Part shown: positions 13,407 through 35,076 of the stretch, piece after piece | Numbering within the stretch: position 1 is the stretch's first letter | How the letters are laid out: every line of letters starts with the position of its first letter | IMG/VR virus record: IMGVR_UViG_3300045988_128571 | Span: 1-35,076 of that record | Origin: a virus | Direction: 5' to 3' (one strand) | Length of the DNA stretch: 35,076 nucleotides | Notes under the pieces: generated by a model | What the model was told of the DNA's origin: nothing | What the model saw: the letters and a program-made list of their open reading frames with translations, nothing else | Database searches by the model: none | Program-made: the position numbers and the translations under genes

Positions 13407-13889
13407 CTAATTTCTCGCAACAAGGAATCCTGCTATAAATGCCAATGGTGTTCCTATTGCCCATGCGTCACGTTGTCTTTTTGCCAGTCTCAATTTGTGC
13501 TTCAACTCGTCGATTTCTTTCTTCAACAATTCTAATTCTTTCTTGCACTCGTTGATTTCTTTCTTCGCTTCTGCCAATGAGATCTTCGCACTGTTTAATG
13601 ATATCTTGATTCTGCCCAATTCCATTTCTAAGCTGTTGCATTTCTTGAGTAACCTCTCGGCTTGTTCCCGTTGCTCGTTCGAGTTCAGCGTCAACATGCT
13701 CAAGTTCTGTTTCAGCATCGCTAATTCTGTCATCTGCTCTGTCCAGTCCGTTTTGAAGTCGTTCCATTCTTGGACTGTCATTGTGATGTATTCCGTAGTC
13801 TCCTCGGCTTGCAATAAAAACGATGGAGAAAATAACAAGAATGCACAAAATAATACTTTTGTAATGTATTTTGACAAAATTGTACACAT
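13407..13889 (-). CDS. Lysis-cassette membrane protein: N-terminal signal/TM, long coiled coil, C-terminal TM (XhlA-like or spanin-like)
   Basis: ATG at 13889 (MCTILSKY...) with a GGAGGA RBS, 2 nt after the upstream stop. Has LFCAFLLFSPSFLLQA|EE, the heptad-like AKKEINECKKELELLKKEIDELKHKLRLAKRQ, and a C-terminal AWAIGTPLAFIAGFLVARN. Confidence 0.55.
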   Translation of the reverse strand: MCTILSKYITKVLFCAFLLFSPSFLLQAEETTEYITMTVQEWNDFKTDWTEQMTELAMLKQNLSMLTLNSNEQREQAERLLKKCNSLEMELGRIKISLNSAKISLAEAKKEINECKKELELLKKEIDELKHKLRLAKRQRDAWAIGTPLAFIAGFLVARN

Positions 13890-13891
13890 TA

Positions 13892-14155
13892 TCAGTCCTC
13901 CACATTTTTTACACAAACGTTTTCCCATTTTTTATATGCATCAAGATATGTTTCTTTTTTGTCACCATTGTATGTGACTTCGTAGTACATTCCATCGGAT
14001 ATTGTCGTGCTTATCAACGCTTTCCAGTTCTGCAATGTTTTACTAAACCATACGATAAAAACTTCACTTTCTTTCAGTTTTTTATTATCTGTTATCTCTA
14101 CATGTTCATTGTAGTAATCGATAACGATCTGTTTTGCTTTTTCCTGATAGTTCAT
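13892..14155 (-). CDS. Small conserved-looking phage protein (87 aa) next to the endolysin
   Basis: VFIVWFSKTLQNWKALISTTISDGMYYEVTYNGDKKETYLDAYKK resembles a small family often seen in lysis regions of Firmicute phages. The family number is not asserted. Confidence 0.6.
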   Translation of the reverse strand: MNYQEKAKQIVIDYYNEHVEITDNKKLKESEVFIVWFSKTLQNWKALISTTISDGMYYEVTYNGDKKETYLDAYKKWENVCVKNVED

Positions 14156-14157
14156 TT

Positions 14158-14748
14158 TTAACCCTCCATCACGACATCCGCATCAAACAATTTTCCCTCG
14201 ATATTTTCGGATTTCGTATACTGCCAGATATGGGCACCCGGATAATCACATTTCGAATCAAACTGTGCACACCATATTGCACAGCCGCCCAGCTGATCAA
14301 CATCCAGAATATTCACCAGCCAATCATAACAAGAATACAGTCCCACATATTTATAGCCCGCATCCCACAAGCGATTAATGAAGACGTTGCAGATGTTTGT
14401 CAGTTCCTGATTATCCGGCATGCCATGACGTTCTTTGTAACCATCCCCATCTTCCATGTCGAACCATACGCCCATCGGCAATTTATCTGTAGTCAATCCG
14501 CACTCTTCAAGCGTCTGAATAACAAAATCCGCCTCGATACCTGCCACATCGTCAGATAATGCATAAGAATAATGGTAAATGCCGATTTTCATTCCTGCTT
14601 TTAACGCGCCGTTTACATTGTCATAAAATTGGCTGTCAAGATGTCCTTTCCCGTAACCAATACGGATGATGGCAAATTCAAAGCCTGCCGCTTTTACAGC
14701 ACCCCAATCCACCACTCCATTGTTTTCAGATACGTCTATTCCCTTCAT
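14158..14748 (-). CDS. GH25 muramidase endolysin, catalytic domain only
   Basis: MKGIDVSENNGVVDWGAVKAAGFEFAIIRIGYG...DSQFYDNVNGALKAGMKIGIYHYSYA is a GH25 signature. The ATG at 14748 with an AAAGGAG RBS is preferred over 14784. At 196 aa there is no room for a wall-binding domain. Confidence 0.9.
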   Translation of the reverse strand: MKGIDVSENNGVVDWGAVKAAGFEFAIIRIGYGKGHLDSQFYDNVNGALKAGMKIGIYHYSYALSDDVAGIEADFVIQTLEECGLTTDKLPMGVWFDMEDGDGYKERHGMPDNQELTNICNVFINRLWDAGYKYVGLYSCYDWLVNILDVDQLGGCAIWCAQFDSKCDYPGAHIWQYTKSENIEGKLFDADVVMEG

Positions 14749-15052
14749 TATTTGCCGCTCCTTTCTCTGCTGCATCGGAATCACCGTTCCGATTTTTGTT
14801 GACAGAAAATACTGATATAAAAGTAACAGCCCCGACTACTGCCGGAGCTGCATACTCTTTGAAAAATGTAATCAACTGTGCCGTATTAGCTGTTCCTGTT
14901 CGATAAAAATCATGAAGCCACGAAAAGAGAACCATGAAAAACAGAATCAGAAGTCCGGCCCCGTAGAGATACACTACTTTTAACGATGTGTTCGCACGTC
15001 TTGAAATACGTGGCACATACCGCGTCCACAGTTTTTTGATTTTCTCCATCAT
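14726..15052 (-). CDS. Putative holin (2 TM helices, charged C-terminus)
   Basis: 108 aa starting MMEKIKK. TM1 VVYLYGAGLLILFFMVLFSWL and TM2 YAAPAVVGAVTFISVFSV, with a basic/acidic tail. Its 3' end overlaps the endolysin start. Confidence 0.6.
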   Translation of the reverse strand: MMEKIKKLWTRYVPRISRRANTSLKVVYLYGAGLLILFFMVLFSWLHDFYRTGTANTAQLITFFKEYAAPAVVGAVTFISVFSVNKNRNGDSDAAEKGAANNEGNRRI

Positions 15053-15378: not shown

Positions 15379-18300
15379 TTATTTGATATCTCCTTTCCCT
15401 AATGCCTTTCTTGCAATTCTAACTTGTGACATTTGTATTTCATCCAGCCTCTTTCGTTTAGCCTCACTGGATAAATCACTTTTCATGACTGCCTTTTTTG
15501 CTTGATTAATATTCTGAAAAGCTTTCACGGCATTCTTCATCTGTTCAAATTCTCGCGGATCGAATCCGTCCATCCGCCTATGTAGTTCCCGCCCCGCATT
15601 GAATAGTTTCAGTTGCCTGTCATAGGCATCATAAACTTCCTGTACGCTTTCACTGCTTGCGTATGGCGTGGCGGTAAATCCACGAATCCCCGGCTGTTCA
15701 GAAAATCGTTTTGCCGGACGCGTTTCATCCAGTCCGACCATCTGATCAGTAAGTGTTAATCCCAATCCGGCAAGGCTGCCGCCGTATCCTCGGATAGTAT
15801 TATCTACCTTGCGGGGAGAAACACCGAACGTTTCACCTATTTTACGGCCTACCGCTGACGTGTAAGGTCCATACTGCAATTCAGGAATTGTATTCTGCTG
15901 GCTTTGCGGTACAATATCGCGCCCCATAAAGATTGAATGATTGGTCATCGCTTCAATAGCCGGCACTAATGCAGTCGGCAGGAAGGATGGAGCCATAGAA
16001 TCAAGTACAGAGCCGGCAAGGCCTTTGAATCCCACTCCCTTTTGTTTTCTTTTTTTGTCATAATCCCACTGCAACATACGTTCCGGAACGGTACCGAAAA
16101 GAATTCCCAGTTCAAAGGGTTTGGGAATTTTAATCAGAGTGTCTTTCGTCGGAATAATCCAGAAAATATCTTTCTGCCACTGCGGCAGTTCCTGATACCG
16201 GGGATCGTCCTTGTTGAGTTCCCAAAGCAATACTGACGGCAAGGTAATCCACATAGCCGTTTTTACTGTCATATCCATCGGATTCGCTTTCCATTCACGA
16301 AACATCTTATCCGTTCCCTGAATAGCCGCATTGAAAAAGGCAATCGTCTTATTCAGTGATTTTGTGTGAGAACCTATTCGTGAAAAGTCCAGCGTCACAT
16401 CACGACTTTCAAGCGCCGCTTCCTGAATACTGCCCGGATTTCGCTTTCTGCTGAACAGCCGATTTCCGATGCCCGTATACCCTTTTCGCACATTATGAAA
16501 TTCTGCCAAGCGTGTAGCCATTTCTGTGGCTTCGGATAATCCACGTAAAACTTCAATCGGATTGGTAGTAATCATCTTCTTGACGCTTGGCCGCTGCAAG
16601 AGCTCTCTCATTTGTCCGGAAAGGTAATTCCTATCCAGAGAAACAAGATTAGCCTGTGCCGCACCCGACCGCATGTATTCCCAATACGTATTGCCCTTTT
16701 GCAGATACAGCCCCAATCCTTTAAGAGTGTCTACAACGGGGATAAATCCATATTTAGAGTAGATCGTAGCGGAAATCATGTCGCGTACGGGGTTACGCAG
16801 AATAAATTCCGGCCCCAACGTCGCCCCGGCACGAAGCCATTTTGCCGGATAAGAAAGAAGCTTCGTAAACATGTTTGCACCTTCCGGATTCAACATTTTA
16901 AATGCCTGATACAATTCCGGTGTCGTGTTATAAACGACTTTCTTTCCGTTTCTCCACACACTGAAACTATGATCCGTCACCTTTGCCGCACCGGACACTT
17001 TTTCAATCAATGCTCCCATGCCATCAACATTGGCCAGTTTCACGATAGATTGTCCGACTTTATTCCGTTCGATGGCACTCATTATTGAGAAAGTATTCCG
17101 GATTATTCCTTCCAGTGGGTCTACTACATCTAAAGTGCTGCCGCGCATTTTCTTTGTGACAGCCCCCACATTAGCAAATCCTTTTCCTGTTCCATTCCTT
17201 TGTGCTTCTGCAGCTTCATAAAATTCACGGAAGAACGGTACATAATGAGGATATTTATTCTTCATGGCCATTGCAGCCTTTACCGATAACATACCGGCAT
17301 CTACAGCATTTGCAAGCAGGAAATCATTATATCTGTGGATTTCCGTAGCGGCTTTCGCGAAAACAGGATTCTTCTCATAATGCTTGATGACGTCAAAACA
17401 TTCCGATTTTGTAAATCTCGTAATCAGCGGTGTCTCATCCCTTGGCAGGAATGTGTTCCAGTGGTTCATATCAAGTTCGCGCAATGCGGTCAGATACGTA
17501 GAAAAATCTTTCAGCTGATTATCCGGGATTTTTCGGATAATCTCTTTAAAAGCAGGTATTTTATGCTTGGGCGAACCATTCTGCAGAAGTGCTTCTGCTT
17601 TACCTGCCCAACCGCGCGCAAGCCACGCCTGCTTAAATGCGTTTTCTTCTACTCTCAACTTTCTTCCTGCGCGTTTTTCCACTTCACTGATAAGTTCCTC
17701 TAACGGATGAAGCTCATCCACCAGTGTACTATACGGTTCATGATAAACTTTCCGTGCGACTTTCTTAGAATCCTTAAAGAATTTCAACGTTTTCTGCAAT
17801 AGATTTTCTTTACCGCCAAAAGAAACAGAACCTTTCATCCGTTCCCACACAGGCTGCGCATACCATTGATGGCCGACATAAGACAATTTGTCTACTGCAG
17901 CATGCAGGTCTTTATCACCTTTCAGTATTTGTTTAAATTCCTTATAAAACAGCGGGAAATCAGAGGCCGCTTTCTTTCGACTGGTAACGTAATCATGGAA
18001 AAATTCAGCAATCCCTTCCTTTCGGATGGTTTTTATACCACCTTTGTTATAGGCATTTCCGAAACGTTTATGGATAACATTAGAAAATTCTGTATCAAAA
18101 CCAGGACGGTTGCTGAATTTAAACCTTGCATCCACATAGTGGCCAAGTTCATGCATAACAGTTCGAGGATCCCCGAATGTTCTTGTTCGTATAATGTCCG
18201 TTTTAGGGTTATACCATCCGCTTGTACCTTTCTTGCCAACACGTCCTTTCTTGATGGTGGCACCGAAAATACTATTTACATCGTCAAGAATCTGCTTGCG

Positions 18301-20532
18301 TGAAATCGTCTCTCCCTGCCAAGTGGTCAAGTCATTACCGGCCGCCTCCTCAAGCGGTCTTGCCATAAATGATCGTTCATCACCCGGCAATTTTACTTTT
18401 CCTGCTTCTTCTGCTACAATAGAGTTGCCAGATGGGTGGAGCTGGGTATCCAGCGTTGAAACCCTATCACTGGAGGGTTGCAGAGGATACCCTGACTGAC
18501 GACCTCGAATATTTTCGCCGACGTAAATTAATTCGTCGGCGTTTTTTATATCCCTTGAAAGCTGGTTAATAGCATTGTTGCGATGTCTTGGCTTATCCAT
18601 AGCCGTACTTGAAGAGATAATTTTCCCTTTATCGGTTTCATCCATGCTGACCGCTATTTGATGTAACAAATTATCTTTCCCGCGCCATAGATTCACATAG
18701 AGTTTTCTTCCGTTCTTTTGCTTAAGAATAAAATCCGGATTTTGAACAGTATCTTTTATCAACCCAGTTGCAAATGCACGGCTATCAGAAATAGACATAT
18801 TTTCGCCATGTCCGGAAGTGAAAGCTTTAACTGCGTCATCTACTGCATTTTTGTTTTCTTTGTCAAAAATAACTCTTACTTTTTCTCCCATCGGATCGTC
18901 TATTCCGTCAGCAAGTTTAAGCGTTTCCTGACGTGCATATTCAAACTTCTGTTTTTCCGGTAAATCTTTGAATGCGCTATATTCCGTTTCGTCATATGTA
19001 CGGAATACTTCCTTAGGAATAGTTCCATCTTTGATACGATTGGACAATTCTTCCGGCGTAATATCTTTCACCGGATCCTTCATGAAATTTAAATTTGCTT
19101 CTTCCGGCGCGGCTTGTTTCACATCTTCCGCAAAATCATTGAGCCCGTTCTGCATGGGACGCTGCATCGGACGGACACTGCGGCCATCATAGACTTCTCT
19201 GGCCACCTGCTGGCGGTATGCGTCATTGGCCACTGCCGGATCCGGACGTTCATACTGTTCGCGGACAATATGCGCCGCTTCTTCCGGAGTGATATTCGGA
19301 TTTTTGCGGAGTGCTTCAAAAGCCGCCCGTTCTGTAGTATTCATCTCTTCGGAGATAAAATCTACCTGTGTACACCAATCTTTGGGATCCAGTCCGTGTT
19401 CCCGGGCAAATTGCTCTAAATGTGCCTTTCTATCGCCCGTCCACTGCACCAGCCCGCGGGAATTATATCCATCTTTTGAAAGCGCTTCTGTATCAAACAT
19501 GGATTCTTGCGCAATGTTTCCGGTAATCCCCGCCGCTTCGGAATCAGTAAATCCGTTCTGGCGGAGACGGTTGTAAACATCTGTTTTTATATCTCCTGTC
19601 TCGCCGTATTCGGGCGGCAGGTTTGTTTCTTTAAGTGACTGCGTGCCCATCTCTGTATCACGGGCTAAATCGTCAAAACCTGTCTCCCCGCCACGTTTAA
19701 AAGAATCAAAAAAGCGACCTTTCGCATTGGCAAGGCCGCTCTTTACCGGATCAATAACATGTTCATTAAACGGTTCCGTCACATGCTCGCGGATAGGCTC
19801 GCTGATACTTTTCGGCGTTGCTTTTTTTATGCCTTTTGCCGCTCCGTGAATGACCGCGCCCGGTAAGAACACTTTATCCCACAATTCGGTCGGATTATCC
19901 ACAAGACTCTGTGCATATGCTCCCGGATGTGTAACCGCTTCTTTAACCGGATTAATAACAGGATCTAAAAGTGCCTCTTTTGCCGTGCTAATAACAGGCG
20001 TACCGTCATCATTGGCGATGTTCTGATCATAAGTCTGCATCGTAGAATCAAGCAATGTAGGGGTTGCCAATGCTGCACCTGCCATACGGACAATGCCGGG
20101 CATACCGGGCGTAATGGCGGTGTACCCGGCAGGTTTGCCTACCAGCTCATTGTAGACATTCATTTTTGCCCGGTTGTAATTTTCGCCCTCAAAGCCTTGC
20201 GTTGGGTCTTCCATGTTGATGGATTCTCCATTGTTGTAGGCTTCTAAAGCACGCTCTCCGGCAGCCGTAATTTCATTGCCATAATTTTCTATGGCTTTGC
20301 CGGCATTAGCCGCGTAATCAGAAAGAGTATTCCATACATTGGCTTTCGTCTTCTCCCACTGCGCTTTGCGCGCTGCACGCCCTTCTTCATAAGCGTCATC
20401 GATGCTGTTCAAAAAGCCTTTGGCCTTATCAAGCAAAGACGAATCCTGCGGCGGCTGATTCTTGAATTCATCAAAATATCTTTCACCGCCAGTATTACCG
20501 CCAGCACGCTGAAATTCATCAAAATAACCCAT
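15379..20532 (-). CDS. Giant polyvalent virion or ejection protein (1717 aa) with a phage-tail-lysozyme-type domain and an HExxH metallopeptidase-like motif
   Basis: aa ~318-430 (DNA 19243-19581): NGFTDSEAAGITGNIAQESMFDTEA...GLVQWTGDRKAHLEQFA, a tail-lysozyme-type motif. aa 794-798 is HELGH (DNA 18139-18153) in the context GWYNPKTDIIRTRTFGDPRTVMHELGHYVD. A roughly 800-aa C-terminal region has unknown function. It is the last virion gene before lysis. Confidence 0.8.
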   Translation of the reverse strand: MGYFDEFQRAGGNTGGERYFDEFKNQPPQDSSLLDKAKGFLNSIDDAYEEGRAARKAQWEKTKANVWNTLSDYAANAGKAIENYGNEITAAGERALEAYNNGESINMEDPTQGFEGENYNRAKMNVYNELVGKPAGYTAITPGMPGIVRMAGAALATPTLLDSTMQTYDQNIANDDGTPVISTAKEALLDPVINPVKEAVTHPGAYAQSLVDNPTELWDKVFLPGAVIHGAAKGIKKATPKSISEPIREHVTEPFNEHVIDPVKSGLANAKGRFFDSFKRGGETGFDDLARDTEMGTQSLKETNLPPEYGETGDIKTDVYNRLRQNGFTDSEAAGITGNIAQESMFDTEALSKDGYNSRGLVQWTGDRKAHLEQFAREHGLDPKDWCTQVDFISEEMNTTERAAFEALRKNPNITPEEAAHIVREQYERPDPAVANDAYRQQVAREVYDGRSVRPMQRPMQNGLNDFAEDVKQAAPEEANLNFMKDPVKDITPEELSNRIKDGTIPKEVFRTYDETEYSAFKDLPEKQKFEYARQETLKLADGIDDPMGEKVRVIFDKENKNAVDDAVKAFTSGHGENMSISDSRAFATGLIKDTVQNPDFILKQKNGRKLYVNLWRGKDNLLHQIAVSMDETDKGKIISSSTAMDKPRHRNNAINQLSRDIKNADELIYVGENIRGRQSGYPLQPSSDRVSTLDTQLHPSGNSIVAEEAGKVKLPGDERSFMARPLEEAAGNDLTTWQGETISRKQILDDVNSIFGATIKKGRVGKKGTSGWYNPKTDIIRTRTFGDPRTVMHELGHYVDARFKFSNRPGFDTEFSNVIHKRFGNAYNKGGIKTIRKEGIAEFFHDYVTSRKKAASDFPLFYKEFKQILKGDKDLHAAVDKLSYVGHQWYAQPVWERMKGSVSFGGKENLLQKTLKFFKDSKKVARKVYHEPYSTLVDELHPLEELISEVEKRAGRKLRVEENAFKQAWLARGWAGKAEALLQNGSPKHKIPAFKEIIRKIPDNQLKDFSTYLTALRELDMNHWNTFLPRDETPLITRFTKSECFDVIKHYEKNPVFAKAATEIHRYNDFLLANAVDAGMLSVKAAMAMKNKYPHYVPFFREFYEAAEAQRNGTGKGFANVGAVTKKMRGSTLDVVDPLEGIIRNTFSIMSAIERNKVGQSIVKLANVDGMGALIEKVSGAAKVTDHSFSVWRNGKKVVYNTTPELYQAFKMLNPEGANMFTKLLSYPAKWLRAGATLGPEFILRNPVRDMISATIYSKYGFIPVVDTLKGLGLYLQKGNTYWEYMRSGAAQANLVSLDRNYLSGQMRELLQRPSVKKMITTNPIEVLRGLSEATEMATRLAEFHNVRKGYTGIGNRLFSRKRNPGSIQEAALESRDVTLDFSRIGSHTKSLNKTIAFFNAAIQGTDKMFREWKANPMDMTVKTAMWITLPSVLLWELNKDDPRYQELPQWQKDIFWIIPTKDTLIKIPKPFELGILFGTVPERMLQWDYDKKRKQKGVGFKGLAGSVLDSMAPSFLPTALVPAIEAMTNHSIFMGRDIVPQSQQNTIPELQYGPYTSAVGRKIGETFGVSPRKVDNTIRGYGGSLAGLGLTLTDQMVGLDETRPAKRFSEQPGIRGFTATPYASSESVQEVYDAYDRQLKLFNAGRELHRRMDGFDPREFEQMKNAVKAFQNINQAKKAVMKSDLSSEAKRKRLDEIQMSQVRIARKALGKGDIK

Positions 20533-20543
20533 ATTTTACCTCT

Positions 20544-21812
20544 TTACGGTACCCATGCTGCATAGAAACCGAGTCCTTCGTTTCGTAATGCCTGCTGTAC
20601 TTCTTCTTTGGACATATGCTGCCGCATTTCCATGATTTTATTACTGAGACCTTGCTCATCATTCACAAGCTGTTTCTGCCCGCCTGTTACATCTCCCGGC
20701 TGTCCGGGCTGCTGCAAGCCTAAAACCTGTTGCAGTTGTGCATAATAAGGAGATTTTGCGGGATCAAAATCATCATCATACATATGTTGCTTCTCGTACA
20801 TCTGCTGCAAGTGACTTAGCTGTGAAATAATCTGCGAATTGTACCCGCTCGTTCCGGGCCCTTGTACTTCTCTTGCTGTACCAGGAATAACCTGCCCGCT
20901 TCTGACATCAAATAATCCGCCGCCGGTATTCACATAAAAACGTCGCGGATCTTGCGGCGGTGCATAATTCCCCATCTGCTGGACAGCTCCTGTATCGCCA
21001 TTGATTCCTACAAGCTGGCCATTTGGCATTGTCTTATAAGAAATATTCGGCTTATCCAACGCGTTGATGTTATTCAGCATATTCATATCAATCTGTGGAA
21101 GCCCCAGCTGCTGAGCACGGTAATTATAAGCGGCAATCCGCGGCGCCATTGCCTTAAGTTTTTTCGGATCATAACCGCTGACTGCCGCATTCCCGTCTTT
21201 ATCCGTAGTATAGACGAGCTGATTTAGGATATCCTGCCGTGCCGGCTCAAGAACACTGTCCTGATAGGCATTAAGCTGCTTACCATATTCTTCTGCTGTA
21301 TCATTTTCAAGCATTTCCTTTGCCATGCGCGCTGCTTCCTGTTGTCCATAGCCACTCTTGATGAAGCTGACATACGCCGCCCCGGCTTTATTTCTAAGCG
21401 ACTGCTTAATTTGGCTCCTGTCAGGCGCACCCGGCTGCGTTTGTACTTGCGGCTGTCCCTGCTGCGTATTTAATTGATAATGAGGGACGGCCTGTTCCAA
21501 TGCGTCCTGCCCCGCCGTAGTTGAAGACTGCAAAGGCTGTGTGCCGGCAGTGTTGATCTTGAAATGAGGCATTGCTTTTTCAAGACCGTCCTGCGCAAAA
21601 AGACCGTTGCCCATATGCGGGGTCTGCGGCTGTGTCAATTGAGCCAAAAGGCCCGGGGACTGTTCATCTTGATAGCCCCCAAATACTCTTGTTGCATAAT
21701 CTTTAGCATTGCGGGTATCCTGTATCTTCTGCAGACGGTTTGCCGCCCACAGTCCCGCCAGATTCCCAATCTGATCCCATGGTGATTTATCCTGTACATA
21801 GATAACACTCAT
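20544..21812 (-). CDS. Q-rich putative internal virion or ejection protein (422 aa)
   Basis: Low-complexity Q/G/P-rich protein between the Hint protein and the giant protein. AAGAGG-type coupling to its neighbours. Confidence 0.55.
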   Translation of the reverse strand: MSVIYVQDKSPWDQIGNLAGLWAANRLQKIQDTRNAKDYATRVFGGYQDEQSPGLLAQLTQPQTPHMGNGLFAQDGLEKAMPHFKINTAGTQPLQSSTTAGQDALEQAVPHYQLNTQQGQPQVQTQPGAPDRSQIKQSLRNKAGAAYVSFIKSGYGQQEAARMAKEMLENDTAEEYGKQLNAYQDSVLEPARQDILNQLVYTTDKDGNAAVSGYDPKKLKAMAPRIAAYNYRAQQLGLPQIDMNMLNNINALDKPNISYKTMPNGQLVGINGDTGAVQQMGNYAPPQDPRRFYVNTGGGLFDVRSGQVIPGTAREVQGPGTSGYNSQIISQLSHLQQMYEKQHMYDDDFDPAKSPYYAQLQQVLGLQQPGQPGDVTGGQKQLVNDEQGLSNKIMEMRQHMSKEEVQQALRNEGLGFYAAWVP

Positions 21813-21814
21813 GA

Positions 21815-23467
21815 TTATTTACCCGCTTTCTTAGCAACCGTCTTTCTTCTTGTTGCCGGCTTCTTAGCTGCCGGCTTTTTCTCTGTTTCATCCGTTGTTT
21901 CTTCTGCAGATGTTTCCATTTCCTGCATAGGTTCTTCTGCAGAATCTTCTGTTTTCTGTTCTGCAGGAACAACGTCAACCGCTTCTGCAGGAATAATGTC
22001 TCCATCCGGGGCATTACCCGCTTTGTCAGCTTCTGTCAAGCCTTCCGCCAAGATACCGTTTGCATAGAACATATTGTCACCGGTCAATTCCAGTTCATAA
22101 ACCTTTTCTTTTCGACCGGTTTCTACAATTGATGTAATCGGTTCAAATCCGTTTACTGTCATGACACTCTCACCTTCGGAAAGTTCGGTTAAAGGTTTCT
22201 TTCCATCAGGCGTCATGAATACTTCCGTCTGTGTGGTTTCTACCGTGCAGGATGGCGTGCGCAGTTCATAAATATCCGCCTCGCCCATATCATGAAGTTC
22301 TGTAACCTCATTCACTGCGCCAAGAGAAACAACCTGATCACCAAATGTCATCTGTTCAATGGCAACTGCACCTTCCGGTGTTGAAATTTCTGTTCCTGCT
22401 GTAAAGCATGCAAAATAACTTCCTAATCCGCTCATAAGACCTCCAAAGAATCCGCCGCTCCCTTGACGTACAACCGTCTGTGCAGGAGAAGCTACTGAAT
22501 ACCGCTGTTGTGATAACTGAGATAATAAACCTTGCGTTGGTGCGTTCTGGCCTGTCGCCATCGCCAAGTATTTCATTGGCGTATTAATGGACGCTTCCTG
22601 CGCCGTTGCTGCCGTTTTAATCGGATCTGTCGTCATCTGTTGCGACTGATTCGCCAGCTGTGACAGCGTTGAAATACCTTGCTGTCTGTTGTTGAAATTC
22701 GTATTTGCCAAGTCAGCCTGCTGCCCGTAGCCGGAAAGCTGGTTCCTGAATATATCACCCAATAGCCCCGCCTTACCGTTAATGCCCGCCAATTGACTGT
22801 TATAAGCTTGTCCGGCAAGCCCCGCGGCTGTCTGCATATCATTTCCGTACTGTGCAGCCAGCGTATTAGATGCATTTCGGGAAATATCATTGAATGCGCT
22901 GTCCGCTTGTGAAGAATTGATAATTCCCCGGCTGGCCAGTCCGGACAATGTACTCCCGACTGTATTCGTTAAATCAGCTTGTAATGCCTTTTGTCGATTC
23001 TCCGCATAAGAAGATGGCAGCACACCGTTTAACAATCCTTGCATAGCAGTATTATTATTCTGCATGGCCGTATTGTATTCGGACGCCAGTTCTTTATTCC
23101 CCTGTGTCATAGACTGAATAGCATTCCCCAGCAGCCCAGAGAAACGGTTGTTAGCCGCTGCATTAGCGTCTGTATTTGCATTTACCTGCGGAATCAGTCC
23201 CTGTACCAGCTGATTATTGGCTGCCGTCTGATTCTGCGCCCGGTCATACAATGTCTGCCAGTTGGGATTCGGCGTAACTTGCTGGCTGCTTAATGCTTGA
23301 TTAGCCATATTCAGCAGGTTTTGTGCCACCGGCTGTGTAGTCTGTGCCCATTTCAGCTGTTCGCCAAGCAGCCCTTTTTCCTCATCGGACATCTGTGGCA
23401 CTTGCGCCGGTGTTGTCGTTATCTTTGTCCCCTTTTTCCCGAACAGCTGTAAATCAAATAATAGCAT
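21815..23467 (-). CDS. Q/N-rich virion protein (550 aa) with an L27-like N-terminal Prp-cleavage motif, an internal Hint (bacterial intein-like) domain and an acidic-then-basic C-terminal tail
   Basis: N-terminus MLLFDLQLFGKKG. Hint domain at aa 354-476 (DNA 22040-22408): CFTAGTEISTPEGAVAIEQMTFGDQVV...VYELELTGDNMFYANGILAEG. Tail: ...EEPMQEMETSAEETTDETEKKPAAKKPATRRKTVAKKAGK. AAAGGAG RBS. Confidence 0.8.
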   Translation of the reverse strand: MLLFDLQLFGKKGTKITTTPAQVPQMSDEEKGLLGEQLKWAQTTQPVAQNLLNMANQALSSQQVTPNPNWQTLYDRAQNQTAANNQLVQGLIPQVNANTDANAAANNRFSGLLGNAIQSMTQGNKELASEYNTAMQNNNTAMQGLLNGVLPSSYAENRQKALQADLTNTVGSTLSGLASRGIINSSQADSAFNDISRNASNTLAAQYGNDMQTAAGLAGQAYNSQLAGINGKAGLLGDIFRNQLSGYGQQADLANTNFNNRQQGISTLSQLANQSQQMTTDPIKTAATAQEASINTPMKYLAMATGQNAPTQGLLSQLSQQRYSVASPAQTVVRQGSGGFFGGLMSGLGSYFACFTAGTEISTPEGAVAIEQMTFGDQVVSLGAVNEVTELHDMGEADIYELRTPSCTVETTQTEVFMTPDGKKPLTELSEGESVMTVNGFEPITSIVETGRKEKVYELELTGDNMFYANGILAEGLTEADKAGNAPDGDIIPAEAVDVVPAEQKTEDSAEEPMQEMETSAEETTDETEKKPAAKKPATRRKTVAKKAGK

Positions 23468-23479
23468 GCAATCTCCTTT

Positions 23480-23881
23480 CTAATGTAAATTCTCAATTGT
23501 GCCAGTCAGCACATAGTAATGCCTTCCTTCGTAGTCATAATCTTGTTCCGGATGGTGAATCATCTTCCATCGGCGTATATGTGCTTTCGGATTGCGCGTC
23601 GTCATTGTCACGATATCTTTTACTTCGTTAAGCGCCATCACCTCTCTGATGTAGTCAACCATTTTGTGAAACTTGCCGTATGTTTCAAGAATCTGGAAAT
23701 AAACGATTCCCTCATACTTAATCAATTGCCAGAAAAGAAATCCGGCATTCGGAAAAAACTTGAAATGCGTTCCCTGTTTATCATGAAGATCATCATCAAA
23801 AGAGAACCCATCAAAACTGACGGATTCGCCAGTGATACGTTCATAATCTTTTATCATTTCCTGTAAACTTGATAATTTCAA
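23480..23881 (-). CDS. Hypothetical protein (133 aa; start uncertain, TTG at 23881 or ATG at 23857)
   Basis: Co-oriented ORF between the fibre-associated gene and the ejection proteins. No confident motif. Confidence 0.45.
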   Translation of the reverse strand: MKLSSLQEMIKDYERITGESVSFDGFSFDDDLHDKQGTHFKFFPNAGFLFWQLIKYEGIVYFQILETYGKFHKMVDYIREVMALNEVKDIVTMTTRNPKAHIRRWKMIHHPEQDYDYEGRHYYVLTGTIENLH

Positions 23882-29246: not shown

Positions 29247-30155
29247 TTAATCACCGCAGAGGTCATCAATCTGCTTTCTGATTTCCGCCGGAAGTTCATT
29301 CTCCCGGCCTTCATCGACATACCGCAGGATTTCTTCTTCGGACAGTTTTGCGCCAGTTAGAGTACCGCCGTTTAATGCACTTGCTTTCGGCAGCGTTTTA
29401 GCCGTTTCGAGCGGATTTTGTGCAGGCGTGGTCATTGCTGATTTTACCTTTTCAGCAAAATCACGAATAACTTTAAAGTCTGCATCAGTGCCTATCCCCT
29501 GATCAATACGTGAAAATGCCGCATCAATCGGAGCAGCGTCTTTTCGCGTCATGCCATCCAGCATTTCAGTGCCCTTCTGCCACAGCTCGCCGATATTCGG
29601 AATAGCCTTAAGCTCGCCAATAAACGCTACATTTTTCTGATAGGTTTCCTGCCGCTCTTCCTGCTGGCGTGTCATCTGATATTCAATCCGTGCTTGTTCA
29701 TGAAGAAGTTCCTGATACTTTTGTGCATCGGTGAACATTAAATCAGATGCGTCATCAATCTTGAGCCGACGTGCGGCTTCCTGCTGCGCATAACTGCGAA
29801 TTTGATTCAAATCTTCCGGAGATAATACCGGTTTCTGTGATATGCTCATCTGTGAACGCAAAGTATTAGCCGCTTCTTCGGCCGCTTTTCTGCGAGCCCT
29901 TTCTTCCGCTAACGCTTTCTTTAAATCGCCGCCTGCCGGATTGTCTTCCGGTTCCTTTGCCGGTTCAATTTTCGTTTTAGGTTCCGATTCAGAATCAGGG
30001 TCAGTTTTCGGCTGTCCGTCTGCAGAATTATCTTCCGGTTTCTTTGGATCATTACCAGCTGAAGTTGCCGGTTCCGGCTTATCAAGACCTGCTTCTTCCA
30101 AATCTTCCGCGTCAAAGCCTAAATCTTCTGCGTTAAGCATTGCTTCATTTTCCAT
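29247..30155 (-). CDS. Scaffolding protein
   Basis: 302 aa with a highly acidic, P/E/K-rich N-terminus and helical coiled regions. Located between the portal and capsid genes. Confidence 0.7.
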   Translation of the reverse strand: MENEAMLNAEDLGFDAEDLEEAGLDKPEPATSAGNDPKKPEDNSADGQPKTDPDSESEPKTKIEPAKEPEDNPAGGDLKKALAEERARRKAAEEAANTLRSQMSISQKPVLSPEDLNQIRSYAQQEAARRLKIDDASDLMFTDAQKYQELLHEQARIEYQMTRQQEERQETYQKNVAFIGELKAIPNIGELWQKGTEMLDGMTRKDAAPIDAAFSRIDQGIGTDADFKVIRDFAEKVKSAMTTPAQNPLETAKTLPKASALNGGTLTGAKLSEEEILRYVDEGRENELPAEIRKQIDDLCGD

Positions 30156-30281: not shown

Positions 30282-32243
30282 TTACTGCCCTAATAGCTGT
30301 GGTTGTTGTATCGGAATTTGCGGTTGCACCGGCGGAGCGATTGCACGCCCTTTCAGTGCTAATCTTTCCTGCATAATTTGATCAGGCGAAATATTTACCC
30401 CGATAGACTGCAGCGCCGTTGACAGTGCTTCCGCCGGTAAATCTTCAATACTTGCGCTGACTTTAAGGTCCGGTATTTTCGGCTGTTCGGAAGCCTGCTG
30501 CATACGCTTCTTGACCGTTTCTTTTTCCGGGAAATCCATGAAGTCAAGAATGATATCCATCGGAATATCAACACCTGCCTTCTTCGCTTCCAGCAACTGA
30601 TACAAATTCGCCCGCCGTGCGGTAGCGCTTGCCTGCGACGTTGTGATTACAATGTCGAAATCGAAAGCGGATAAATCATACAGTACTTTCGTTACCGGGT
30701 CACCGTTTTCATCCGTCACCGGCATACCGTTCTGATCTACCGTCTGCTGTTCTTGCATTGCTTGTCCCAGTCTTGGCTGTATCTGCACAAATTCTTTCTT
30801 GCCGTCTTCACCGAGAATCCGCATAACTTTATCTTTGTTATAAAACTGCGGGATTAGTCCCGGCGTGTATGTGTCTCCCCACAAGAGTTTTACAATCTGC
30901 AGTTCAGCTTCTTTTGCTTTGTCGAATATTTCCGCTGTCTGCACTGTGGTAACGGATTGCCGAAGGTCGATTGCCTTTCCGCTCATTGCCCCAATACTGC
31001 CTGACAGGCTCTCCGGAGTAATGCCTGAAATCGTGTAGAAATCACTGCTTGAGCGGTTTTCAAGCTCTATATTATTGACAGACTGCGCAGACGGAAGCCC
31101 GTCGGTAAATGTCACACCCGGCTTTAAGAAAATATTCGCACCCGGAGTTGTAGACAGATTCCGAATTTCCTGTTTTTCTTTTTCGTCAAACTGCGGTCCA
31201 GTCCAGAACCGGACGCCAAGCGACTGCTGATTAACAATGTGCATGCGCTGACTGCGGTTCTTGTTGAGTTCGCGCTGTGCGTCTTTTAGATCCCGCACAA
31301 TGCCCGCCGGTTCCAATCCGTCATCTAAGTCCTCGCCGTAACCGGATAAGTAGCAATACTGCCGCACAAGTGGGAATTGATTGTGTTTATAAGGACTTTC
31401 TCCCTCTTCGAGTAATACATCTCCGCAGAACGTTGCGTATCTGATTTTCGTAACTGGTATTTCTTCCGGTTCCGCTCCAGACATTAAAAAAGCCGAATAT
31501 AAATCCGGCTGCGATTCATCGACGATCATTCCGTCTGCAGAAAACACTTTCTTCCGTGTGTATTCTTTATACCAGTACTGCACCACACGAAGCTTTTTTA
31601 AATCCCGCGAATACCAGAGCGGCTCCGTATCGACCGTCTCCAATTCGCTGTCATCGTATTTATGCGTGAGCATGGCAATTTCATCTGCTTTGTCCGCATA
31701 TATTTGCTTCAATTTATCCGGACTTTCCCAGCTGTAACGCCCGCAGTAGAAAGCGTCTGATAAATCATCTTCTTTGCATTCCGGATCAACGAATACATCA
31801 AAAGGGCTGACGTTTTTGATCTGTATCCGACCATCCATGCGGGCGTAATCAAATTCATAACTGACCCAGTAGTTTCCGACACCACAAATGATAGCGTCTT
31901 TGAATGCCTTTTTCTTAACGCTCTGATAATTCGTCTTGTCGAAAGTGTACTTCGTGATACCTTTGGCTACTCGTGCTACGCGATCATCTTCTTCTGACCG
32001 CGGCAGGAAATCAGGTTCCGTCTCATTCTGCGCCGCATAGCCGGAAAGAAGATTAATAACCGGACGGATACGGTTAATTGTAATAACCGGACGGGATTTC
32101 TGTTTCATTACTTTTAAATCCGCGTCCGTCCACTGTTTACCGCGCATGAAATCATAATCTTCTTTTGCAATTTTGCGCCATTCGCTTGTTAGCTGCAGCG
32201 CCCTTTTTACATTATTTCGCGCTTCGGATAAATCAAAACTCAT
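30282..32243 (-). CDS. Portal protein
   Basis: 653 aa. EDYDFMRGKQWTDADLKVMKQKSRPVITINRIRPVINLLSGY portal-type motif. Located after terL. Confidence 0.8.
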   Translation of the reverse strand: MSFDLSEARNNVKRALQLTSEWRKIAKEDYDFMRGKQWTDADLKVMKQKSRPVITINRIRPVINLLSGYAAQNETEPDFLPRSEEDDRVARVAKGITKYTFDKTNYQSVKKKAFKDAIICGVGNYWVSYEFDYARMDGRIQIKNVSPFDVFVDPECKEDDLSDAFYCGRYSWESPDKLKQIYADKADEIAMLTHKYDDSELETVDTEPLWYSRDLKKLRVVQYWYKEYTRKKVFSADGMIVDESQPDLYSAFLMSGAEPEEIPVTKIRYATFCGDVLLEEGESPYKHNQFPLVRQYCYLSGYGEDLDDGLEPAGIVRDLKDAQRELNKNRSQRMHIVNQQSLGVRFWTGPQFDEKEKQEIRNLSTTPGANIFLKPGVTFTDGLPSAQSVNNIELENRSSSDFYTISGITPESLSGSIGAMSGKAIDLRQSVTTVQTAEIFDKAKEAELQIVKLLWGDTYTPGLIPQFYNKDKVMRILGEDGKKEFVQIQPRLGQAMQEQQTVDQNGMPVTDENGDPVTKVLYDLSAFDFDIVITTSQASATARRANLYQLLEAKKAGVDIPMDIILDFMDFPEKETVKKRMQQASEQPKIPDLKVSASIEDLPAEALSTALQSIGVNISPDQIMQERLALKGRAIAPPVQPQIPIQQPQLLGQ

Positions 32244-34908: not shown

Positions 34909-35076
34909 AATCTCGCACCATCCCCGCCATTGCAATCCTTATACTTTCGTGAAATTTTTCCGGCAAGCTCTATCTTCCAGTAAACTTGCATTTCACTAAT
35001 CTGTTCGTTAGTAGTTGTTAACAAATCTAATTTATTAACCTTACGTTTTAACAGTGACCTTGCAACCCTTATAGGC
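34905..35076 (-). CDS. C-terminal part of the junction-spanning ORF (bases 35022-35076 duplicate 1-55)
   Basis: In-frame continuation ...LLTTTNEQISEMQVYWKIELAGKISRKYKDCNGGDGARL*. The stop TGA (34905-34907) overlaps the next ATG. Confidence 0.4.
   Translation of the reverse strand, partial: PIRVARSLLKRKVNKLDLLTTTNEQISEMQVYWKIELAGKISRKYKDCNGGDGARL
35022..35076. repeat. Terminal direct repeat, copy 2
   Basis: Identical to 1-55. Confidence 0.95.

Follow-up and report, generated by a model that had tools for sequence, protein, structure and literature searches.

In the Staphylococcus aureus phage 80alpha, the capsid protein gp47 and the scaffold protein gp46 start with leaders that imitate the propeptide of the host ribosomal protein L27 (...LNLQ[FH]F/A; here and below, a slash marks a known or predicted cleavage site), and it is established that both proteins are cleaved by the host protease Prp (PMC5744158, PMC9405229). 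For phage P22, the GenBank record describes the product of gene 7 (gp7) as an injection protein from which the N-terminal 20 amino acids are removed by the host Salmonella protease OpdA. The sequence of gp7 starts with MLYAFTLGRKLRGEEPSYPE/KGGKGGADKS..., Edman sequencing has placed the mature end at Lys-Gly-Gly-Lys-Gly, and deletion of the leader leaves ~60% of the burst (PMC8402733). Here we analyse the IMG/VR scaffold IMGVR_UViG_3300045988_128571, which was taken whole (35,076 bp; "the window"), and in particular one of its genes, which encodes a protein of 550 amino acids with an L27-type leader at its N-terminus. An earlier sequence-only reading had proposed that this protein, a putative ejection protein, hijacks the Prp of the host, and the results described below support that proposal. 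The explanation that best fits them, and that we consider likely to be correct, is that the first ejection protein of a Dialister phage carries both a Prp-type leader and a Hint module.

The open reading frame (ORF) of the 550-amino-acid protein occupies positions 21815-23467 on the minus strand, and the protein starts with MLLFDLQLFGKKG. Positions 23429-23467 correspond exactly to codons 1-13. The ATG (23467-23465) is the first start codon past an in-frame stop codon that lies four codons upstream, and a ribosome-binding site, AAAGGAG, can be read from the sequence at 23473-23479 (minus strand), with a spacer of 5 nt to the ATG. The leader peptide M1-F9, MLLFDLQLF (23441-23467, minus strand), is an L27-type propeptide that matches every defined position of the Prp-substrate consensus ML-x-x-(D/N)-L-Q-(F/L)-F (PMC9405229), and a Prp cut is predicted after F9. 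The peptide across this predicted cut site is MLLFDLQLFGKKGTK, and the counterpart in pre-L27 is MLLFDLQLFAHKKGV. The predicted mature N-terminus, G10-S27 (GKKGTKITTTPAQVPQMS; 23387-23440, minus strand), is rich in Gly, Lys, and Thr and is predicted to be disordered (predicted local distance difference test, pLDDT, <50). The pattern [LFIMV][NDSTKE][LFIMV]Q[FLHY][FL][AGS] has a single occurrence in the six-frame translation of the window, namely at this N-terminus, and a rough, composition-based estimate gives 3e-4 as the chance expectation of an F[DN]LQxF close to the beginning of one of the ~55 genes. The near-copy of the L27 propeptide that the sequence-only reading had noticed at the start of the protein is therefore confirmed and is unique in the window. 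Its statement that capsid and scaffold lack the motif also holds, as judged from their N-termini (MAHEFKIP... and MENEAMLN..., respectively) and from the pattern scan of the window.

The leader had initially been compared with those of Bacillus subtilis and S. aureus L27. This comparison is less apt than that with the L27 of the host itself, which is far closer. Metagenome contigs were scanned for F-D-L-Q-[LF]-F-A-x-K-K-G, and the L27 leaders were given organism names by exact-sequence look-up. The scan yielded 120 stretches, nearly all of which are L27 genes. Eleven of them start with MLLFDLQLF/AHKKG and three with MLQFDLQLF/AHKKG, and a Prp-like gene is located directly upstream in each case. 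The look-up assigned the leader MLLFDLQLF to Dialister (MULTISPECIES)/Dialister invisus (EEW96200.1), Dialister sp., D. micraerophilus, and Veillonellaceae bacterium DNF00626. The leader MLQFDLQLF belongs to Allisonella histaminiformans and D. pneumosintes, MLKFDLQLF to Anaeroglobus geminatus, and MFKFDLQLF to Megasphaera micronuciformis. L27 of D. invisus starts with MLLFDLQLF/AHKKG, so that host and phage leaders match at all 9 positions. The contig with the exact D. invisus L27 has an rplU-prp-rpmA operon (Peptidase_Prp PF04327, E = 1e-21), in agreement with the prediction, made from the window alone, that the host should have both Prp and an extended L27.

At the DNA level, the leader sequences of the phage gene and of the host L27 gene share 19 of 27 bases, and all four Leu codons as well as the Asp codon differ. 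The identical peptide is thus kept by selection on the peptide and is not due to a recent DNA transfer. A total of 170 close homologues of the 550-amino-acid protein were collected, of which 154 start with MLLFDLQLFGKKG and 16 with MLQFDLQLFGGGK. The leader of these 16 phage homologues (MLQFDLQLF/GGGKG) equals the L27 leader of A. histaminiformans and D. pneumosintes, which at the sequence level is suggestive of co-variation of phage and L27 leaders. The Veillonellaceae L27 leaders are of the type M-[LF]-x-F-D-L-Q-L-F, which is also the consensus leader of the phage family and is unlike the type ML[KN][LM]NLQ[FL]F found in L27 of Bacilli and Clostridia. Long L27s starting with MF[TRH]FDLQLF/ASKKGAGSTRNGRDS were also observed on many contigs of high GC content (0.65-0.71; L117, L120, L129, L138, L143, L153, L157, L200, L224, and L226), and the F-D-L-Q-L-F leader type is thus widespread outside the Veillonellaceae.

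For an analysis of the wider family, residues 1-345 were compared exhaustively with 1.84 billion cluster representatives. This retrieved 183 relatives at E ≤ 0.001, the best 150 of which were classified. Of the 150 representatives, 76 carry a Prp-type leader, i.e. x(0-11)-F-[DN]-L-Q-x-F with G or K as the next residue, and the motif is thus conserved among homologues down to ~25-30% identity. The leaders have lengths of 6-18 amino acids (median 9) and are located at the extreme N-terminus. Counted backwards from the cut, P1 is F in 70 of the 76 leaders, P2 is L in 47 and R in 23, P4 is L in 70, P5 is D in 58 and N in 11, and P6 is F in 63, while the Gln at P3 is demanded by the search pattern itself. 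Past the cut the family consensus is GG(G)KGGSTT, i.e. G/K residues are followed by an S/T-rich stretch. The bodies of the 76 leader-bearing members are about 25-35% identical to the window protein, and the leader is therefore by far the best-conserved segment. S. aureus Prp has been crystallised with Ac-KLNLQFF-CMK, a ligand that carries non-prime residues only; in this structure, P1 and P2 are buried, the P3 Gln is buried and essential, P4 and P6 have hydrophobic surroundings, and the side chain of P5 receives a hydrogen bond (PMC9261936). On alignment, the conserved leader positions are the positions that are contacted by S. aureus Prp. The leader is almost certainly a conserved, functional, and host-matched propeptide.

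The remaining representatives include two further types of N-termini. At least 16 of the 150 homologues are leaderless and start with M-GGKGG or M-GKKGG, i.e. exactly at the predicted P1′. Another 28 of the 150 have an unrelated leader of ~20-45 amino acids, which is basic and aromatic and ends with ...[HR]-[FY]/K-G-G (e.g. RRYFRHCRF/KGG and LGHCHF/KGG). The second leader type, for which ...YGRMVRY/KGG is a further ending, was observed in L005 (6274-7887), L013 (9950-10810), L034-L048, L090-L101, and others (representatives P0132-P0221). In L048, L065, and L104 it occurs alongside Prp-type leaders on the upstream ORF at the scaffold/capsid position. The possibility that the second class is a version for hosts without Prp is ruled out by this coexistence and by its presence in a metagenome-assembled genome (MAG) of Selenomonas.

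In related phages, Prp-type leaders are not confined to the ejection protein. In the prophage of Selenomonas sp. AE3005 (L018), an acidic ORF at the scaffold position starts with MFEFDLQMF/ADEE, the capsid protein (1570-2622; PF13252, phrog_334; 35% identical to the window capsid) starts with MKFKFDLQRF/ADTTIPQEL, and the family protein starts with MDIQFDLQLF/GGGGGG. The IMG/VR phage L079 has the same pattern (MRKDFDLQLF/AEDM, MRKNFDLQLF/ADTT, and MIRRSFDLQMF/KGKG, respectively); its capsid (L079 1403-2416) was also compared with the window capsid. From their sequences, both phages have the 80alpha arrangement, with the canonical F/A junction, plus the putative ejection protein as a third leader bearer. 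In the window, the major capsid protein (PF13252; 28252-29220, minus strand) and the scaffold (29247-30155, minus strand) have the N-termini given above. The capsid start, M-AHEFKIPEKL, is no more than one residue away from the cut predicted for the L018 capsid. It thus represents a leaderless version of the leader-bearing capsids, and within this phage group leaders have been gained or lost independently on capsid, scaffold, and ejection protein.

The window phage resembles 80alpha in that a phage prohead protease is missing and, as we propose here, the essential L27-processing cysteine protease of the host is borrowed instead. Pfam and NCBIfam scans of the window, together with precomputed Pfam results for bases 1-20326, revealed no Prp, prohead protease, Rrp-like enzyme, or other known protease family. 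In several respects the two systems differ. The putative substrate is an internal (ejection) protein rather than a capsid or scaffold protein, and a Hint module is attached to its C-terminus. The phage itself is a P22-like podovirus whose host, Dialister (Negativicutes), is a diderm Firmicute, whereas 80alpha is a siphovirus of a monoderm. The residue at P1′ is Gly or Lys in the family, in contrast to Ala in 80alpha, and the leader is identical to that of the host at 9 of 9 positions, while the 80alpha leaders are merely similar.

The assignment as a putative ejection protein, which the sequence-only reading had also made, is backed by synteny of the P22 type and by parallels to gp7 of P22. 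The gene occupies the position of P22 gene 7, between a gene-14-like gene and the genes at the positions of gp20 and gp16, in a phage with a P22-type portal. Like gp7, the protein has an N-terminal leader, which a host enzyme is predicted to remove, and a composition rich in Gln, Asn, and Ala. Gly-rich hydrophobic C-terminal tails are found in gp7 (...GGGIGLLGSLF), in the body of the window protein (...GGFFGGLMSGLGSYFA), and in Hint-less relatives (...GLLGGVGSYYGAKG). Past the cut, the family has GG(G)KGG or KGGKG, the window protein has GKKG, and gp7 has KGGKGG, a motif that is short and of low complexity. In contrast, gp7 has another leader sequence and another protease, its body comprises 209 amino acids versus 344 in the window protein, and it is devoid of a Hint module. 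gp7 belongs to phrog_598, which is matched by no family member; one member matches phrog_4287 ("DNA ejection protein"). A comparison of the family profile with Protein Data Bank (PDB) sequences yielded nothing relevant. Because homology to gp7 is undetectable (see below), we regard the window protein as a likely positional and functional analogue of gp7, not as a demonstrated homologue. In some Selenomonadales prophages, the leader-bearing family domain forms the N-terminal part of proteins of 1130-1859 amino acids (L009 8420-12841, L011 1889-5281, and L012 7700-13279), which suggests fusions of the gp7-like protein with downstream ejection proteins.

The structure of the protein was modelled with AlphaFold from an alignment of 120 sequences (mean pLDDT 80). 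In the model, residues 1-27 are disordered, residues 28-325 form four very long helices, residues 326-353 are a disordered Gly-rich hydrophobic segment, residues 354-488 form a beta-rich Hint fold (pLDDT ~97), and residues 489-550 are a disordered tail that is first acidic and then basic. The Q/N/A-rich body core (residues 28-325; 22493-23386, minus strand), as delimited by AlphaFold and by alignments A2 and A3, includes the most conserved block of the family, L..T.G...LA.RG[IV].NSS. Fold searches with the helical body retrieved generic coiled coils only, and the body matches no Pfam or NCBIfam family, apart from a weak match to phrog_30808 (unknown function, E = 6e-5). The body ends with residues 326-353 (...QGSGGFFGGLMSGLGSYFA; 22409-22492, minus strand) directly before the Hint Cys. 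It is followed by the intein-like Hint module C354-G476 (22040-22408, minus strand), which is predicted to cleave itself at A353/C354. The C-terminal tail (residues 477-550; 21818-22039, minus strand; pLDDT ~40) would remain on the Hint module. Its length varies among close homologues (proteins of 539-620 amino acids), and most family members have ~7-10 residues there.

Three lines of evidence agree on the presence of the Hint domain, which had been recognised from the sequence at the outset: the Pfam family Hint_2 (40.6 bits at a cut-off of 28.4), the AlphaFold model, and its superposition on the gp41-1 mini-intein, with a template modelling (TM) score of 0.91 and a root-mean-square deviation of 1.2 Å. 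Bacterial intein-like (BIL) domains were also matched, and family members match Hint_2, Hint, PT-HINT, and Hom_end_hint. The module of ~130 amino acids, counted from the aligned invariant Cys (CF.xGT), is present in 65 of 119 aligned representatives (alignment A2), while the 54 Hint-less representatives end at or within a few residues of the body-Hint junction. No association between leader type and Hint presence was found in the family.

Cys354 is invariant in 66 of 66 Hint-bearing members, the motifs T-T-x-x-Q/E and VYD...N.FFANG are kept, and the module ends with FFANG..(A/V)-E-G. A terminal His-Asn and a +1 nucleophile (Cys, Ser, or Thr) are missing. Therefore, the module cannot splice, and only N-terminal cleavage is plausible. 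Its residues fit an N-S acyl shift that would release the upstream body, and, as far as can be judged from them, it probably cuts itself off. C-terminal Asn-Gly cleavage at FYAN/G was considered and rejected, because ANG is internal to intein block G and the terminal His-Asn is missing. The module shares the mini-intein/BIL fold, the invariant first Cys, and blocks F and G with BIL, Hedgehog-type, and pretoxin-HINT domains. It differs from them in its location on a putative phage ejection protein and in the replacement of the block-B His by Gln or Glu.

From these comparisons we infer that the 550-amino-acid protein would be the first ejection (injection) protein of the phage, made as a three-part precursor. 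The first part, MLLFDLQLF, would act as a copy of the host L27 propeptide, so that host Prp could cut after Phe9 and expose Gly10 (GKKG...). The second part, the body of residues 10-353, would comprise the flexible G/K/T-rich N-terminus, the four very long helices, and the Gly-rich hydrophobic tail. The third part, the Hint module with the invariant Cys354, would cleave itself off at Ala353/Cys354. The mature body of residues 10-353, trimmed at both ends, would then be packaged and ejected in the same way as gp7 of P22; its packaging and ejection are suggested by the synteny. Homologues that are naturally pre-trimmed at either end exist, i.e. they start at P1′ or stop at the Hint junction. By analogy with L27, 80alpha, and P22, the leader could keep the protein inactive or aid its folding or assembly until it is incorporated, and it may be only modestly important.

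Several observations weigh against this interpretation. The P1′ residue of the window protein is Gly and not Ala (rarely Ser), which is typical of L27 and 80alpha substrates; in the 76 family leaders P1′ is G in 64, K in 10, and N and C in one each, but never Ala or Ser. Arg at P2 (23 of 76) is absent from the published L27 table. Prps have been reported to be very specific, and a substrate of the S. aureus type is not cut by the Prp of C. difficile. The occurrence of the second leader class alongside Prp-type leaders indicates that another protease can evidently take on this task. The leader or its cleavage is largely dispensable in P22 and for the 80alpha capsid protein, which makes the functional importance uncertain. 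Homology to P22 gp7 or gp20 was not detected with hhalign (probability <1%) or in phmmer searches against more than 200 family members. In the Hint module, the block-B His is replaced by Gln in 59 of 66 members and by Glu in seven, including the window protein, while T412 is kept in 64 of 66.

It was therefore considered whether the leader is removed by a protease other than Prp, i.e. by a host oligopeptidase like OpdA, by a proteasome-like enzyme of the Rrp type, or by an unrecognised phage protein. Such an agent is unlikely, although it would fit a P1′ residue that is unlike that of every known Prp substrate, the second leader class, which must be read by a non-Prp enzyme, and the presence of several window ORFs without a recognisable family. 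Precedents exist as well: gp7 is cut by OpdA and not by a dedicated protease, and Rrp (SP_1145), a proteasome-like N-terminal nucleophile (Ntn) hydrolase encoded on a phage-like element of S. pneumoniae TIGR4, has been reported to be able to trim the L27 leader if Prp is missing (bioRxiv 10.64898/2026.08.10.744006), so that Prp is not the sole enzyme capable of removing such leaders. However, Rrp is described as non-specific and without a unique cut site, whereas the 9/9 identity with the Prp substrate of the host, in spite of the synonymous divergence, would be difficult to account for without an L27-specific enzyme. The match between conserved and Prp-contacted positions and the canonical F/A leaders on capsid and scaffold of related phages, i.e. 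on the proven classes of Prp substrates, point in the same direction and make Prp the probable enzyme. A slightly less likely possibility than another protease is that the leader is retained, either as a tag that binds Prp or another factor and serves as a signal for procapsid assembly or a folding chaperone, or as a Prp decoy that disturbs late ribosome maturation. Assembly of 80alpha needs the scaffold leader but not its cleavage, and its investigators proposed a role of the leader in coordinating folding via a common chaperone, as well as an association of Prp with large assemblies (PMC5744158); in gp7, the procapsid-binding region is N-terminal (PMC8402733). Permanent retention is argued against by the leaderless homologues, which begin exactly at P1′ and imply that the body works without a leader, by the swapping of unrelated leaders at one junction, which is typical of disposable propeptides, and by the characterised bearers of the motif, all of which are cleaved. 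In view of the leaderless homologues and the gp7 precedent, removal of the leader between F9 and G10 is very probable.

Two further explanations concern the nature of the leader itself. A double-glycine export leader, which would be cut after Gly-Gly by a C39 peptidase of an ATP-binding cassette (ABC) transporter, comes to mind because most family members have Gly-Gly right past the hydrophobic leader (F/GG). Yet only one Gly is present in the window protein (LFGKKG), Lys occupies this position in ten members, and the leaderless members start with MGGK or MGKK, i.e. before the Gly-Gly. In addition, typical double-glycine leaders are longer than the family leader with its median of 9 amino acids, and the family scans detected neither a transporter nor a C39 peptidase in the window. 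This explanation is very improbable and was rejected because of the single Gly, the leaderless starts, and the missing transporter. An accidental likeness between a hydrophobic N-terminus and the L27 leader would be favoured by the shortness of the motif and its common residues, but its probability is negligible in the light of the expectation of ~3e-4. It is effectively refuted by the exact identity with the host leader and by the conservation of the leader in 76 of 150 distant homologues.

Under the favoured reading, with a leader that is removed by Prp and a Hint module that releases itself, the two trimmed ends might cooperate, although we regard this as a decidedly improbable extension. 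The thioester formed by the Hint module on the C-terminus of the body would be resolved by an amine and not by water. The amine could be the Prp-exposed N-terminus (GG(G)K...) of a neighbouring subunit, reminiscent of sortase and oligo-glycine, or an amine of peptidoglycan or lipid. If this were true, ejection proteins would be covalently chained, cyclised, or anchored to the envelope, and the choice of leader (Prp-type, basic/aromatic, or none) would time the reaction, link it to the protease of a given host, and be a determinant of the host range.

L27-like motifs have previously been remarked on for the capsid protein of phage 80 and the major tail protein of phi13 (PMC5744158), and the N-terminus of FlhB has been proposed as a Prp substrate (PMC9405229). 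These proteins, like the one described here, have an L27-like leader without being homologues of the proven substrates, but the reports are single observations without a family analysis, and they deal neither with ejection proteins nor with phages of Negativicutes or Synergistetes. The proposed extension of Prp hijacking to a different class of virion protein is supported for the ejection protein, but it is only partly new, because the motif on the phi13 tail protein had already been noted. In the literature we found no report of ejection proteins with an L27-type motif, of this motif in phages of Negativicutes or Synergistetes, of the G/K variant at P1′, of interchangeable leaders, of the parallel to P22 gp7 and OpdA, or of a Hint module on an ejection protein, and nothing relevant on LQLFG or LQRFG leaders or on the Prp of Negativicutes.

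If the interpretation holds, Prp hijacking, which has so far been limited to capsid and scaffold proteins of S. aureus phages, appears to extend to a family of ejection proteins from phages of Negativicutes, Synergistetes, and some Clostridia and Bacilli. Trimming of the first ejection protein by a host protease, known only for P22 gp7 and OpdA, looks general in P22-like phages, and the leader appears to be exchanged to suit the available host protease. The leader would also predict the host, i.e. MLLFDLQLF would indicate Dialister and MLQFDLQLF would indicate Allisonella or D. pneumosintes, which could aid the assignment of hosts to metagenomic phages. As Prp is pursued as a narrow-spectrum antibiotic target, an inhibitor might affect phage maturation in anaerobes of the gut and the oral cavity. 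The doubly capped precursor, with leader and Hint module, would offer a testable system for how ejection proteins are kept inactive until assembly.

Close homologues of the protein (>90% identity) are very common in public assemblies, and one of them is labelled Dialister invisus. Several are located on contigs of 0.3-0.6 Mb, i.e. in prophages. A relative from Veillonella sp. is 41% identical to the window protein. A profile search with an alignment of the N-domain retrieved mainly near-identical variants from Dialister phages and hardly any further names, and among 10 representatives that were looked up by cluster, one had a name (Veillonella sp.). A scan of a genome collection that was seeded with RGVLNSSVT, and that is biased by this seed in that it misses the Dialister and Veillonella subtypes, revealed 24 loci, i.e. 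15 in Selenomonadales, five in Synergistales, and four single loci from MAGs with the labels Collinsella, Bacilli, Lachnospiraceae, and Ruminococcus. Leaders of the Prp type are present at loci from Selenomonadales, Bacilli, Lachnospiraceae, and Synergistales, while the locus labelled Collinsella has the second leader type. The sole leader-bearing member from Synergistales has NLQFF/GG, which agrees with the LQFF that has been published for L27 of Synergistetes. Hosts known by name for leader-bearing members are thus Dialister and Veillonella, in addition to Selenomonadales, Synergistales, Lachnospiraceae, and Bacilli. Firmicutes and Synergistetes are among the phyla for which a long L27 has been reported (PMC9405229), and the hosts of the leader-bearing members all belong to such phyla. 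A tblastn search with the window protein and a central member of the family against 50,697 genomes of isolated phages did not retrieve any family member.

The window represents the whole genome of a temperate, P22-like podovirus that infects Dialister. Its bases 1-55 are identical to bases 35022-35076, which indicates a circular assembly and probably a complete phage genome, either extrachromosomal or from a circularly permuted population. Besides a replication module, there are genes for an integrase, an S24 repressor, and a GH25 endolysin (14158-14784). The virion module consists of the small and large terminase subunits, the portal, the scaffold, a coat protein of the Phage_capsid_3 family, tail genes, and the ORFs of 133, 550, 422, and 1717 amino acids. 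This order agrees with that of P22, i.e. terminase, portal, scaffold, coat, head-completion genes, gene 14, and the injection proteins 7, 20, and 16. The portal protein (30282-32243, minus strand) matches phrog_156, and its P22 type follows from the portal of a near-identical prophage on a 343-kb contig (L003), which belongs to PF16510 (P22_portal); on this basis the window phage is defined as P22-like.

The neighbours of the 550-amino-acid gene were assigned by synteny. The gene for the 133-amino-acid protein (23480-23881, minus strand) is at the position of P22 gene 14 and matches no family; a similar small gene is also found upstream of the family gene in the related prophages that were examined. 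The Q-rich protein of 422 amino acids (20544-21812, minus strand), which likewise matches no family, is at the position of gp20 and is a putative second ejection protein. The protein of 1717 amino acids (15379-20532, minus strand) is at the position of gp16 and is a putative third ejection protein. It matches PF18013 (2e-30), PF18857 (6e-47), and phrog_9854, and its domains comprise a phage tail lysozyme, LPD38, and a weak PBECR2 nuclease-like match. The protein at the gp16 position has 1540 amino acids in L003 and at least 2,286-2,578 amino acids in the relatives L005 (10521-17381), L006 (6570-14306), L013 (13717-20736), and L016 (13922-20884).

Downstream of the endolysin gene and two small genes for membrane proteins, two minus-strand ORFs overlap in different frames (13407-13928 and 13468-13905), and the product of one of them would have a hydrophobic segment at its N-terminus and a coiled coil behind it. 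This might represent a spanin-like lysis component, as would be expected with a diderm host.

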